Shown one piece after another: positions 3,753-37,156 of a stretch of DNA of 64,000 nucleotides. The translations under genes were made by a program, and so were the position numbers. The stretch covers positions 63,733 through 127,732 of the forward strand of contig JAZQYI010000003.1 in the NCBI GenBank assembly GCA_045633445.1. The letters are read 5' to 3'. The stretch is from Alistipes sp. GTDB lineage: Bacteria > Bacteroidota > Bacteroidia > Bacteroidales > Rikenellaceae. The notes under the pieces were generated by a model that saw only the letters and a program-made list of their open reading frames with translations, searched no databases and was not told where the DNA came from. Each line of letters begins with the position of its first letter. The stretch's first letter is position 1.

Positions 3753-4265
3753 ATTTGTACACCGCGAATTCCTCACACCCATTTGTCGTCAAAAGGTAGT
3801 AGTTAATCCATCTTAAAGATGAATTTCCCTCCTCGCAGTTCGGCATAGTCTGCAAGCAGTCTCTGCCCTCACGAGCAGCGTCGGTCGGTGTGCATCGTGA
3901 AATATCCCCAGATGGGCTGTACTTGGGGTACTGCTCATTCGGGGATATGAGGGATGTGCTGCGAATTTGCACACCTATCAATCTTTGCACGCATTTGTTG
4001 TCAAAATGTGTTAGAGATGGCGCATCGCGTAAAAAGCCCAGCGATGGATAGTACTTGAACGTACAGCCATTGCTGGGCTTTTAGGGATGTGCTGCAAATT
4101 TGCACTCCGAATATTATTCGCACTCATTTGTCGTCAGAGTGGTGTAGTTACAACGCTCGGCGCGATTGGAGGCGATGGGCTGTACTAAGGCGTACTGCCC
4201 ATTGCTGACATATCGCGTTAGCGGAAGTAAATGCGCCACTATCACGACAAATGCACGGCAAATGT
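3753..4265 (+). repeat. Cluster 1 of the nested-palindrome element family (three leader + hairpin units in tandem)
   Basis: Leaders at about 3753, 3965 and 4098, each ending in CATTTGTYGTCARA. Hairpins at 3890-3959, 3992-4092 and 4125-4253 with GTAC-loop-GTAC apices. Extra right-end copy CACGGCAAATG at 4254-4264. Confidence 0.85.
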
Positions 4266-5288
4266 TTAGATGTTATGGGACAACGGCGGCGGCACCACCT
4301 CCCCAAACTCATAATCTCCCCAGCGCTCAGCGATGGAAGAGATGGTATCCTGCAGTTCATCGACATCGGTAAGGGTGACGAGTTTCATACGGGTCTGTTT
4401 GAAGTCGGGCAGTCCTTTGAAATAGTTGGAGAGATGGCGGCGCATCTCGAAGATTCCGACCTTATCGCCCTTAACCTCTACAGACTTTGCCAGGTGCTCC
4501 TTAGCGATAGCGATACGTTCAAGAACGGATGGTTGTGGAAGGAGTTCGCCCGTTTCGAGGTAGTGTCTCACCTCGCGGAAGATCCACGGACGACCGTATG
4601 TTGCGCGGCCAATCATCACGCCATCTACGCCATAGCGATCAAACATCTGCTTTGCCTTCTGTGCAGAGTCGACATCGCCATTTCCGATAATCGGGATGTG
4701 GATTGTAGGGTCGTTCTTAATCTTACCGATAAGTGTCCAGTCGGCCTCACCGGTATATAGCTGGCAGCGTGTACGACCGTGAATTGTAAGTGCCGCGATA
4801 CCAACATCCTGCAGACGGTGGGCAATCTCCTCGATATTTTTGCTTGTATCGTCCCAGCCCAAGCGAGTCTTAACGGTAACGGGTTTATTTACAGCATTTA
4901 CAATCTGGCGGGTCATCTCGACCATAAGCGGCACATCGCGCATCATACCAGAGCCCGCACCACGACCCGCGATTTTTTTCATCGGGCAGCCAAAATTGAT
5001 ATCGATAACATCCGGATTTGCACTCTCGGCTATACGTGCAGCCTCGACCATTGGCTCGATCTGATTGCCGTAGATTTGGATGCCTACGGGACGCTCAAAG
5101 TCGTTGATATTGAGCTTTGCCAACGATTTACGAGCATCACGAATAAGGCCATCGGAGGAGATAAACTCTGTAGTTACCATATCCGCACCAAATCGTTTAC
5201 ACATATAGCGAAACGACGGGTCGGTAACATCCTCCATAGGCGCCAAAAAGAGCGCACGATCACGCAACTCTACATCTCCAATCTTCAT
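4266..5288 (-). CDS. dusB: tRNA-dihydrouridine synthase B
   Basis: LAPMEDVT, IDINFGCP, VTVKTRLGW, TIHGRT, IIGNGD and GVMIGRA motifs. Confidence 0.95.
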   Translation of the reverse strand: MKIGDVELRDRALFLAPMEDVTDPSFRYMCKRFGADMVTTEFISSDGLIRDARKSLAKLNINDFERPVGIQIYGNQIEPMVEAARIAESANPDVIDINFGCPMKKIAGRGAGSGMMRDVPLMVEMTRQIVNAVNKPVTVKTRLGWDDTSKNIEEIAHRLQDVGIAALTIHGRTRCQLYTGEADWTLIGKIKNDPTIHIPIIGNGDVDSAQKAKQMFDRYGVDGVMIGRATYGRPWIFREVRHYLETGELLPQPSVLERIAIAKEHLAKSVEVKGDKVGIFEMRRHLSNYFKGLPDFKQTRMKLVTLTDVDELQDTISSIAERWGDYEFGEVVPPPLSHNI

Positions 5289-6184
5289 TAATCCCTCTTT
5301 TTATAGATTTGGTATGAATTTACGATATTTTGCCAAACAATATATGCCGTTGGGGCGACAGAGCAGAGTGGGTTGAGAAACGACTGCGCCATCCATATAG
5401 CCAGTATCGTATTCTTCTGACCCAACGACTGACCTCCGGCAACGGTATCGCCATACTTTGCACCGATCTTACGACCCAAAGCAAATTGAGCAAGGCATAT
5501 AACGGCCGAGATTGCTGCCAAGATAATCTCTGTCTTTGCATCTGTGGCGCTATGGTCAATGACAAAAGCTGTAGTACGACCCACGACAATAGTCAGCGAC
5601 ACGAGCCAAATATAGAACGAGAATTGGCTATGTCCTGCAACCCAACCTGCAACCTTTGGTGTTAAAAATCTGCACAGCTGACCCGCCACAAATGGCGCTA
5701 CGAGCAGAGGTGCAACTTTGCTTAGTATCTGCATCAGTGTACACTGTCCATCCCCTACCCAAGTGAGGATAAATGGCGCTACGAAGGCAGTGCCGATATT
5801 ACAGAGCAGGCTATAGGTGGTCATATTCTCGATATTTGCACCGAGCATACCACCAATAACCACAGCCGCCATAGCTATCGGCGCAAGTGCACATATCATC
5901 GCGCCCTGAGCCACCGTCTGTCCAAGTGGTAGCAGCAGTGTATAGAGGGCCATTGAGCCCACAATCTGAGCCGCAAAGAGCCAGAAGTGCATCATCGTCA
6001 CACGCATCTTTGTAACATCAACACGGCAGTATGTAAAGAACAGCATTACAAATATCAGCACGGGGGTAAGATAACCCGAGCTCCAGGTGTCGATAGCCAC
6101 AATCTGTCGGCACAGCAGCGCACCGATAACCATACCGAGGGGCATCGATACGGTGCGCAGTGTATGTGACGAAACTCTTCCCAT
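5288..6184 (-). CDS. Membrane transporter, bile acid:Na+ symporter-like
   Basis: 298 aa with 9-10 hydrophobic segments; APIAMAA and GQSLGQKNTILAIW motifs. Confidence 0.7.
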   Translation of the reverse strand: MGRVSSHTLRTVSMPLGMVIGALLCRQIVAIDTWSSGYLTPVLIFVMLFFTYCRVDVTKMRVTMMHFWLFAAQIVGSMALYTLLLPLGQTVAQGAMICALAPIAMAAVVIGGMLGANIENMTTYSLLCNIGTAFVAPFILTWVGDGQCTLMQILSKVAPLLVAPFVAGQLCRFLTPKVAGWVAGHSQFSFYIWLVSLTIVVGRTTAFVIDHSATDAKTEIILAAISAVICLAQFALGRKIGAKYGDTVAGGQSLGQKNTILAIWMAQSFLNPLCSVAPTAYIVWQNIVNSYQIYKKRD

Positions 6185-36590: not shown

Positions 36591-36620
36591 TTTTAGATTC
36601 TAGCTATTGGCACTCACAAA

Positions 36621-36829
36621 TTGTACTCCGCTACCCTTTTGCACCCATTTTATCATCAGAGTTTGCACACCGCTAATTTCTTGCACTCATTTGTCGTCAG
36701 AGTGGGGCAGATACCACGCTCGGCACAAAAAACAGCAAAGGGCTGTACTTGCTCGTACTGCCCTTTGCTGTTTATTTGGGTTAGCGGAAGTAGATGCCCC
36801 GCTATCACGACAAATGTTTTACGACAAAA
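36621..36829 (+). repeat. Cluster 4 of the nested-palindrome element family (two leaders, type B element and extra right end)
   Basis: Leaders at 36621 and 36662; 129-bp element at 36688-36816 homologous to 4125-4253; second right end TTTTACGACAAAA abutting the stop at 36830. Confidence 0.9.
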
Positions 36830-37156
36830 TTATCCTTTAGAGGCAATCTGAATTTGGAGTTTGAACTCTGCATCTTTAATCTCTGTCTTAAGTCGGATAT
36901 AGTTACCGAAGTGGGAAACCTTAACGAAGTGGAGGCCCTTTTGGGTTATGGTGTTAAAGGCGGTGCCTTCGTCTACCCAGTGGATGCCATCGTGCGAGAT
37001 CTGCACCTTAGCATCGAGTGAGCCTGCACCAATAATATCCTCAACGAAGATGAAGAAGATAACCTCATCTGCCCAACCTACCTCGTATGGGTGGGTCTCA
37101 AAGCCCTCAGTGAAGGACTTTTTTATCTCTAAATGCGCTGCATTAAACTGTTTCAT
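36830..37156 (-). CDS. Small beta-rich protein of unknown function
   Basis: Start set at MKQFNAAHLE; THPYEVGWADE and VQISHDGIHWVDEG segments; last gene of a four-gene operon. Confidence 0.7.
   Translation of the reverse strand: MKQFNAAHLEIKKSFTEGFETHPYEVGWADEVIFFIFVEDIIGAGSLDAKVQISHDGIHWVDEGTAFNTITQKGLHFVKVSHFGNYIRLKTEIKDAEFKLQIQIASKG

Follow-up and report, generated by a model that had tools for sequence, protein, structure and literature searches.

Small palindromic repeats such as the REP, ERIC and Correia sequences have been known for decades, and their spread and placement are mostly unclear. REP sequences act as terminators or mRNA stabilisers, and in 2015 Liang, Rudd and Deutscher reportedly found that those near stop codons affect translation of the upstream gene. 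ERIC, Correia and RUP elements are transcribed with neighbouring genes and have terminator or RNA-processing effects; we know of no transposase for ERIC or Correia. The PATEs derived from insertion sequences (IS) of the IS200/IS605 type insert 3' of a short target without duplicating it, and in chromosomal integrons the foldable strand of the attC sites is reported to lie on the leading-strand template. Here we describe a family of palindromic elements of about 126 nt that came to attention in a window of 64,000 nt (the whole stretch analysed) from contig JAZQYI010000003.1, here C3, of Alistipes sp. (assembly GCA_045633445.1). Copies of this family are docked exactly, and locked in orientation, on the ends of leading-strand open reading frames (ORFs) and tRNA genes. 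Occupied sites are re-used with entry of new copies at the head, same-site copies are exchanged between strains, and the fold is strand specific. No described mobile element or terminator explains this placement rule, and no partner enzyme was found.

Iterated nhmmer searches over the whole genome (2.0 Mb in 11 contigs, 47% GC; a metagenome-assembled genome (MAG), 98% complete) gave 145 loci in 106 clusters, and 105 of these loci are full length. Each element forms one continuous palindrome, long and imperfect, whose fold z-scores range between -6.6 and -11. The sense-strand consensus reads tTTTgtcGTGAaAa..CAT....GGctGTACgntttAGTACtatCC....CTAcc..tTtTGACgAcAAAa; copies start with (A/T)TTTGNYGTGA, finish with TGACRNCAAA(A/T) and have a conserved GTAC...GTAC apex. 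Terminal inverted repeats are present, with arms ATTTGTCGTGA... and ...TCACGACAAAT that covary between copies: they differ among copies, yet remain complementary within each (ttttatcg...cgataaaa, ttttggtg...caccaaaa, atttcttg...caagaaat). In the consensus stems 97% of the cells are canonical pairs, and 16 of 25 pairs occur in two or more Watson-Crick types. In this genome many copies continue beyond the distal arm into a tail of ~30 nt with two GTGCA boxes (47/50 tail hits are from this genome), and partial copies in arrays start or stop near nt 20/106, the base of an inner 86-nt module. Within the window only tRNAs passed the Rfam gathering score, a permissive Rfam search returned only chance matches to miRNA and snoRNA hairpins, and full-text literature searches found no description of the family.

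Three clusters (C1:266840, C4:133912 and C9:135095) have the same ~30-nt sequence, CTCTGGTTTTGATTTTTTTCGAGAATAACAG, on their distal flank; it is either a further conserved module or a common downstream promoter region. Contigs C2 (C2:13-162) and C11 (C11:85848-86028) start or finish inside element copies. Thus, the repeat family limits the contiguity of this MAG assembly.

Placement was counted in 100 single-orientation clusters with independent crude gene calls. The gene-proximal end lies within 2 nt of a stop codon, or overlaps it, in 67 clusters, and 95 are turned toward a stop and not a start; from the distal end to the next gene the median distance is 204 nt. If each cluster were placed uniformly in its own intergenic gap, 3.1 docked clusters would be expected, as against 66 observed (66/94 clusters), and none of 200,000 simulated runs exceeded 11. 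The original prediction, drawn from four clusters of the window, was that every cluster ends at the stop of a gene, and the genome-wide enrichment over expectation bears it out strongly.

The gene-proximal end could be classified in 104 clusters. In 47 of them the stop lies exactly at the element or both have the last base in common. In a further 12 a long ORF, which in 11 cases has about 200-1000 codons, continues into the element for 8 nt and is closed by a TGA that the element itself provides at nt 9-11. Four ORFs are terminated by a TAA or TAG among the element's first 8 nt. A gap of 1-5 nt is found in ~13 clusters, only one or two duplicated ~11-nt element ends intervene in ~17, and 8 have no ORF of at least 60 codons nearby. 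Counted by reading frame, 47 close immediately, 12 at +8 and 1 at +22. The youngest copies, i.e. those at least 92% identical to a paralogue, are most often exact (27/51).

The gene end rather than the TAA codon marks the site. All four stops in the window are TAA, and a target preference for AT/TAA had been proposed on that basis. This uniformity is an accident of the small sample, since TAG and TGA are also abutted, in genomic proportions (TAA 33, TAG 11, TGA 3, as against 942/505/118 in the genome; p = 0.35). The bases preceding the stop vary among docked copies, and the ORFs that end inside the element have arbitrary flanks (AAGG, CGAA, AAAG and others) without TA. With stop usage equal to that of the genome and variable flanks, TAA as a sequence target was rejected; the 12 ORFs closing on the element's TGA and two docked tRNA genes also oppose the AT/TAA preference. 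In the tRNA-Arg gene (C9:149036-149108) the last base is common to tRNA and element, and in another species a tRNA-Thr gene (locus L038:1488-1562) is followed by the element after a 1-nt gap, with the junction CA/ATTTG. No stop codon exists at either tRNA; the target is a gene end and not a sequence. The 3' trailer of the docked tRNAs is formed by the base of the 126-nt hairpin, and one may ask how their 3' processing proceeds.

In 46/54 copies starting with TTTT the base that precedes the element pairs with the one that follows the distal arm (A-T 28, G-C 16). The base before the element also tracks the subfamily, ttttatcg copies mostly following TAG. From this end pairing and subfamily tracking, the third stop base is best read as the element's own outermost base. 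At exactly docked TTTT-type copies, e.g. at window 16736-16746, stop and element start together read TAATTTTG (minus strand) or TAGTTTTG, which equals the Bacteroidetes -7 promoter box TAnnTTTG and makes the junction a candidate promoter.

Element orientation and GC skew go together: one orientation is found on contigs of negative skew, the other on those of positive skew, and within contig C7 the two change over together. The leading strand, as defined by GC skew, bears the docked genes in about 77 of 81 clear-skew cases (~95%, p ~ 1e-16), whereas genes overall are split nearly evenly between the strands of these contigs. Leading and lagging docked genes number 31 to 1 in C4, 7 to 0 in C3 and 6 to 0 in C11; in C1 plus-strand genes are the minority, yet they are docked 7 to 0. 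A replication-related orientation bias is already known in several IS families (PMC3971601).

In 100/100 full copies the better fold is that of the strand antisense to the docked gene, with a mean advantage of 15 kcal/mol with RNA parameters and 8.6 kcal/mol with DNA parameters. Over these 100 copies, 518 G-U pairs are found on the antisense strand and 57 on the sense strand. Judging from established skew mechanisms, cytosine deamination on the exposed strand would yield the opposite asymmetry. Hence, the conserved fold is that of the leading-strand template or of an antisense RNA, not that of the mRNA. The leading-strand template has the same sequence as the nascent lagging strand.

A generic terminator scan, with loops of at most 8 nt, misses most copies, and T-runs were counted instead. 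At least 6 T within 8 nt follow the inner hairpin on the sense strand in 57/100 copies and on the antisense strand in 44/100. Inner hairpin and T-run thereby have what appears to be the form of a bidirectional intrinsic terminator, and on the transcribed (sense) strand the GC-rich hairpin with U-tract that characterises such terminators, here a predicted function, is present in those 57 copies. The 3'-UTR role suggested in the original prediction holds up to this extent: termination is plausible. It does not account for the better folding of the antisense strand, and because this holds in all copies, the conserved fold cannot simply be an mRNA feature.

Turnover at individual sites was followed by comparing strains, using metagenome contigs matched by exact protein identity at five sites and Logan contigs of four DNA runs. 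An element is present in every strain at the stops of dusB, the inorganic pyrophosphatase gene (ppa), a 126-aa gene, a 186-aa gene and an EF-G-like gene. Variants or array lengths differ among strains at the dusB, ppa, C3:47981, C1:275147 and C10:9754 sites, the arrays having one to five units. At the ppa and EF-G-like sites the stop-proximal copy of this genome differs from the variant that sits on the stop in other strains, and that variant is now distal here, without its first ~10-20 nt. With the older variant distal and a different copy on the stop, we conclude that new copies enter at the stop. A second mode of entry leaves the first ~11 nt of the resident copy (...CGTGC or ...CGTGA) behind as a footprint. 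Such 11-nt duplicate ends recur throughout the genome and in strains at the dusB locus, the first footprint being itself exactly docked, and footprints always finish after ...CGTG(A/C). Secondary insertions occur at defined positions (0, ~11, ~20/106), not at random points in the resident copies. In strains at the C10:9754 site (L184-L187) one element fills the gap between the convergent stops of the EF-G-like gene and a 4HBT thioesterase gene, TAA/element/TCA, docked at both ends.

Downstream neighbours sometimes differ between strains, which places rearrangement breakpoints inside elements. At the C1:275147 site the downstream gene varies (DeoC, DUF5672, ribosomal protein L19, Asp-Al_Ex transporter; L172-L181), and the element of L176 breaks off after ~28 nt. 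Therefore, element clusters coincide with synteny breakpoints. A comparable situation is seen at dusB. In other strains (L001-L010) this gene directly faces, in convergent orientation, a 386-aa gene, after which comes a uvrA-like gene, and each stop has elements. In this genome the 386-aa/uvrA-like block is found inverted, ~3 kb upstream of the window, with elements at C3:60769-60897 docked on it, and window positions 1-3702 hold other genes in its place. This looks like an inversion or rearrangement with breakpoints in element clusters.

A pattern scan of one genome per species gave matches of which, among those listed, almost all belong to MAGs of 'Alistipes sp.' or Rikenellaceae obtained from the hindguts of ruminants and other herbivores. 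Within the genus the family is abundant in two further genomes (G015 and G003), sparse in three and undetected in the rest, i.e. in most species. At the loci fetched from other species 50/159 ends are at offset -1 or 0. When 86 docked genes of other species were compared with this genome, the orthologue here also had an element in 33/86, as against 90/1565 genes overall (p = 2e-17), and 53/86 sites were lineage specific, being empty in this genome. Where sites are empty here and filled next to an orthologue of 88-98% identity, the copies are exactly docked or overlap the ORF end. For exactly docked copies at sites empty here, the protein ends at the same residue in 16/27 pairs, and where the ORF ends inside the element the last 1-5 codons are changed relative to the element-free orthologue. 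Element-free orthologues have TAG or TGA where the docked copy has TAA, and an ordinary A-tract/hairpin/T-tract terminator in the same place. At L082, the orthologous locus of C4:229306, the native spacer that precedes the next gene is kept distal to the insert; at L039, orthologous to C4:192185, the last codons and the native terminator have given way to the element. In other species the sequence TA/ATTTG...CAAAT/TA is found in many copies. The TA after ...CAAAT also starts a tail variant and extends the palindrome, and does not by itself prove a duplication.

All four junctions in the window read as the original prediction described them, including the duplicated right ends of ~11-14 nt before the stop in clusters 1 and 4 (Table 1). 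On the plus strand of the window each cluster has the conserved right end ...CACGA(C/T)AAA(A/T), followed by the TTA that closes a long minus-strand ORF. The copies of cluster 1 comprise a partial one (3884-3977), one without the gene-proximal 20 nt (3994-4099) and a full one (4127-4252), separated by tail modules with two GTGCA boxes. The element of cluster 2 folds with -58.9 kcal/mol (z = -10) and that of cluster 4 with -70.9 kcal/mol (z = -9.3). In cluster 3, with -68.2 kcal/mol on the plus strand and -50.7 kcal/mol on the minus strand, the third stop base is the last base of the proximal copy (offset -1). A tRNA-Pro gene (36472-36546) adjoins the distal tail of cluster 4.

Table 1. Element clusters, footprints and adjoining genes in the window. 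Window coordinate = contig C3 position - 63732; the strand given for a cluster is the sense orientation of the element, i.e. the strand of the docked gene; junctions are written on the plus strand; genes were identified by Pfam search of ORF translations.
Feature	Position in window	Strand	Basis or detail
Cluster 1, three element copies	3884..4252	-	nhmmer C3:67616-67709, 67726-67831, 67859-67984
Duplicated 5' end (footprint) GCACGGCAAATGT	4253..4265	-	between full copy of cluster 1 and stop
Cluster 1 junction with dusB, stop	4266-4268		...CACGGCAAATG-T-TTA
dusB (tRNA-dihydrouridine synthase), stop TAA	4266..5288	-	Pfam PF01207, E = 9e-90
Cluster 2, one full element, stop directly after (offset 0)	16619..16743	-	nhmmer C3:80351-80475; inverted repeat
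Cluster 2 junction with phosphoesterase gene, stop	16744-16746		...CACCAAAA-TTA
Calcineurin-like metallophosphoesterase gene, stop TAA	16744..19521	-	Pfam PF16370, PF16371, PF00149
Cluster 3, two full head-to-tail elements (23474-23601, 23601-23724)	23474..23724	-	nhmmer C3:87206-87333, 87333-87456
Cluster 3 junction with OAD_beta/mmdB, stop	23724-23726		...CGACAAAT, then TTA, one base common to element and stop
Na+-transporting decarboxylase beta subunit (mmdB/OAD_beta), stop TAA	23724..24929	-	Pfam PF03977, E = 9e-165
Cluster 4 distal tail/leader, repeated 3'-arm end and GTGCA-box modules	36600..36689	-	direct repeats, tail analysis
Cluster 4, one full element	36690..36815	-	nhmmer C3:100422-100547
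Duplicated 5' end (footprint) GTTTTACGACAAAA, stop directly after	36816..36829	-	cluster 4 junction sequence
Cluster 4 junction with DUF6385 gene, stop	36830-36832		...CGACAAAA-TTA
Small DUF6385 gene, stop TAA	36830..37192	-	Pfam PF19912

Two further repeats were seen in the window. The two large phosphoesterase genes at 16744-23156 are paralogues in tandem; long stretches of them, offset by ~2.78 kb, recur as direct repeats with ~71-86% identity. A second repeat type at 30850-30898, 31027-31050 and 48483-48517 consists of heptamer words like GCTATTGGC/GCCATTAGC (TTAGCTATTGGCCATTTGCTGTTGGC...); it often lies just distal to element tails, beside gene ends, and has many loci in this genome.

Partner enzymes were sought in this genome and in G003 and G015. 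None of the three contains a Y1_Tnp/RAYT gene (PF01797), a domain that was detected in 12 other relatives and in control genomes. Mobilisation by an IS200/IS605 or RAYT enzyme, which the replication-linked orientation had suggested, was consequently dropped. The same three genomes contain no DDE_3 domain (PF13358, IS630-type), and an IS630-type partner, suggested by the TA flanks, was dropped as well. This genome has five tyrosine recombinases. Four of them (XerD-like, XerC-like, a divergent 300-aa protein and a Bacteroides-type integrase) were scanned for integron integrases, the fifth (C4:334062-335270, 402 aa) being left out; all four scanned proteins were far below the cut-offs, and an integron integrase was dropped as partner. 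Recombinase counts do not track the presence of the element across genomes. Multi-copy ORFs were not found in this genome, a MAG in which IS copies may have been collapsed or lost.

We consider it an even call that the clusters are copies of an orphan, non-autonomous repeat, similar to REPINs or miniature transposable elements with inverted repeats (MITEs), which is placed strand-specifically at the 3' boundary of leading-strand genes. A mechanistic placement is suggested since lineage-specific and youngest copies are already exact and since secondary insertions occur at defined positions. New copies enter at the gene-end junction, or after nt 11 of a resident copy, and thereby push older copies away, leave 11-nt footprints and build arrays. 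The active form may be the folded single strand complementary to the mRNA, with its conserved G-T wobbles and mismatches. Handling of this strand during replication would restrict docking to leading-strand genes, and the enzyme may be a host function. Inner hairpin and T-run would then serve as a predicted terminator, in the slot that an ordinary terminator occupies in the relatives. Mobility through single-stranded DNA would be a trait in common with PATEs, as would an orientation tied to the replication fork. If a folded single strand were indeed inserted without a dedicated transposase gene, exactly at the 3' boundary of any leading-strand ORF or tRNA, replacing the terminator and donating the last stop base, this would be an undescribed kind of DNA movement; we regard this extended version as a tentative and on the whole unlikely one. 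Slow deletional trimming toward the stop is disfavoured as sole cause, since youngest and lineage-specific copies are already exact, and footprints, which move the element away from the stop, oppose it too.

Several observations weigh against a targeted repeat. No pair of an empty and a filled site within the species, which would define the exact insertion boundaries and any target duplication, was found among the strains compared, whose short-read contigs break at repeats. The 33 orthologous sites filled in both species mean that many dockings are old, so that a 'young' sequence may represent replacement rather than new insertion. We know of no DNA-level mechanism that recognises both an ORF end and a tRNA end, and docking on both favours a selective 'wall' over true targeting. 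The element that fills the whole gap between convergent stops looks like a product of compaction, the kind of genes that bear the element may account for part of the leading-strand bias, and no candidate enzyme was found in the genomes searched.

Such a wall is the core of the alternative that the element is an ordinary MITE inserting at TA, of the IS630/mariner-like type that has been proposed for ERIC, Correia and RUP, or inserts unspecifically, and that selection removes most insertions. We consider this possible but unlikely. The element begins with A or G, so that insertion after any in-frame TA gives TAA or TAG, and a second frame closes on the TGA at nt 9-11. Insertions that let ribosomes into the hairpin or leave spare spacer would be lost from a compact genome (coding density 90%), and survivors would abut the functional end. 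The frames found are indeed only those that close quickly. The TAG or TGA of element-free orthologues at the place of a docked TAA favours this reading, the pairing and subfamily tracking of the outermost bases fit an origin of the third stop base in the element, and the wall accommodates the docked tRNAs better than recognition of stop codons does. The single element between convergent stops is likewise expected. However, intergenic TA sites far outnumber the TA of stop codons, yet 66 of 94 clusters are docked as against the three expected. The TA-flanked copies of other species, which favour TA insertion, are ambiguous because of the tail variant mentioned above, and TA is missing both from the flanks of ORFs ending inside the element and from the tRNA-Thr junction. 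Furthermore, no element-bearing genome examined has a DDE_3 transposase, secondary insertions at defined positions are not predicted, and near-total restriction to the leading strand is unexpected from selection on a terminator.

Alternatively, the element could be a module kept by the host, either a gene-end cassette (terminator and 3'-end protector) or the gene of an antisense small RNA convergent on the gene end. Selection would maintain it at particular genes, and gene conversion would keep its copies alike. The conservation of sites across species argues for it, as do the hairpin with T-run as core, the whole-element swaps between strains at one site, and the covariation of arms whose G-U positions and mismatches stay conserved. 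On the antisense strand, the tail with its two GTGCA boxes and the arm give TTTG-N21-TAnTTTG, which is near the layout of the known Bacteroidetes promoter consensus. This match is one base short of the consensus, though, in a tail that is mostly restricted to this genome. More than half of the sites compared (53/86) are lineage specific, the family is absent from most species of the genus, arrays of partial copies, footprints and breakpoints inside elements resemble selfish DNA, and no Rfam family matches. We therefore regard a host-kept module as improbable.

Least of all do we favour an attC-like site, in which the folded bottom strand would be the substrate of XerC/XerD or of the orphan recombinase C9:80659-81561 and hairpin 'cassettes' would be inserted or exchanged at a fixed crossover beside the gene end: the uniform end of the footprints suggests such a crossover, the best-folding strand has conserved mismatches and lies on the leading-strand template, and tyrosine recombinases are the only recombinases detected here, but virgin target sites have no common sequence, recombinase counts are independent of element presence, and no scanned protein reaches the integron-integrase cut-off, which makes this reading highly improbable.

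Whatever its origin, the strict and measurable placement rules of this family make the question of how an element finds a gene end concretely testable. The elements supply stop codons and short C-terminal ends, which is relevant to annotation, and in the abundant Rikenellaceae of rumen and gut they break MAG assemblies and mark rearrangement breakpoints. A possible use would be as a natural, portable (predicted) terminator module for the engineering of Bacteroidota.

Compared with described systems, the element first resembles the REP/BIME/REPIN sequences of Proteobacteria, which depend on RAYT. Both are abundant extragenic palindromes (~100 nt in REP doublets) with long hairpins that cluster at gene 3' ends in mosaic arrays, and the terminator or stabiliser activity of REPs is a predicted likeness from the sequence. 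The differences are that element-bearing genomes lack RAYT/Y1, that no GTAG-type head and no paired REP heads are found, and that the element is a single continuous palindrome. To our knowledge, nucleotide-exact docking on stops and tRNAs, fixed orientation and near-total leading-strand restriction have not been described for REPINs.

ERIC/IRU (127 bp), Correia/NEMIS and RUP are similar in size, with terminal inverted repeats and a long hairpin, and TA flanks occur in many copies of our element. These repeats lie in both orientations at variable distances from genes, whereas the element has one fixed end on the gene end in two thirds of the clusters, at leading-strand genes only. A TA-targeting MITE would have the same terminal inverted repeats; its cognate DDE transposase was not found here, and the frequent TA flanks are candidate duplications. 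PATEs differ in needing a Y1 TnpA, which the PF01797 search did not find here, in having subterminal hairpins instead of terminal inverted repeats, and in using a fixed 4-5-nt target, whereas the 5' flanks of the element are variable and show no such target.

The original prediction had noted that the arrangement recalls attC sites although core motifs are absent. The likeness is closer than supposed. Like attC sites (57-141 nt, also in chromosomal arrays and CALINs), the element is an imperfect palindrome with structure conserved over sequence, its folding strand is antisense to the gene, as is the recombining strand of attC, its start adjoins or overlaps the stop, the array head is where new units enter, and orientation is biased relative to replication. 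The core is indeed absent, the element ending in RTTTTGTCGTG...CACGACAAAAY rather than in the R-box core RYYYAAC...GTTRRRY. Membership among integron sites founders on the missing IntI (four recombinases scanned), attI and cassette ORFs; there are no genes between sites, which are scattered behind about 100 housekeeping genes and tRNAs. In summary, REPINs or ERIC-type orphan repeats come closest to this family in their way of working, attC sites in several respects, and defining features of each are missing from it. Orphan palindromic repeats are a known kind, and it is the unusually strict, unexplained placement rules that set this family apart.

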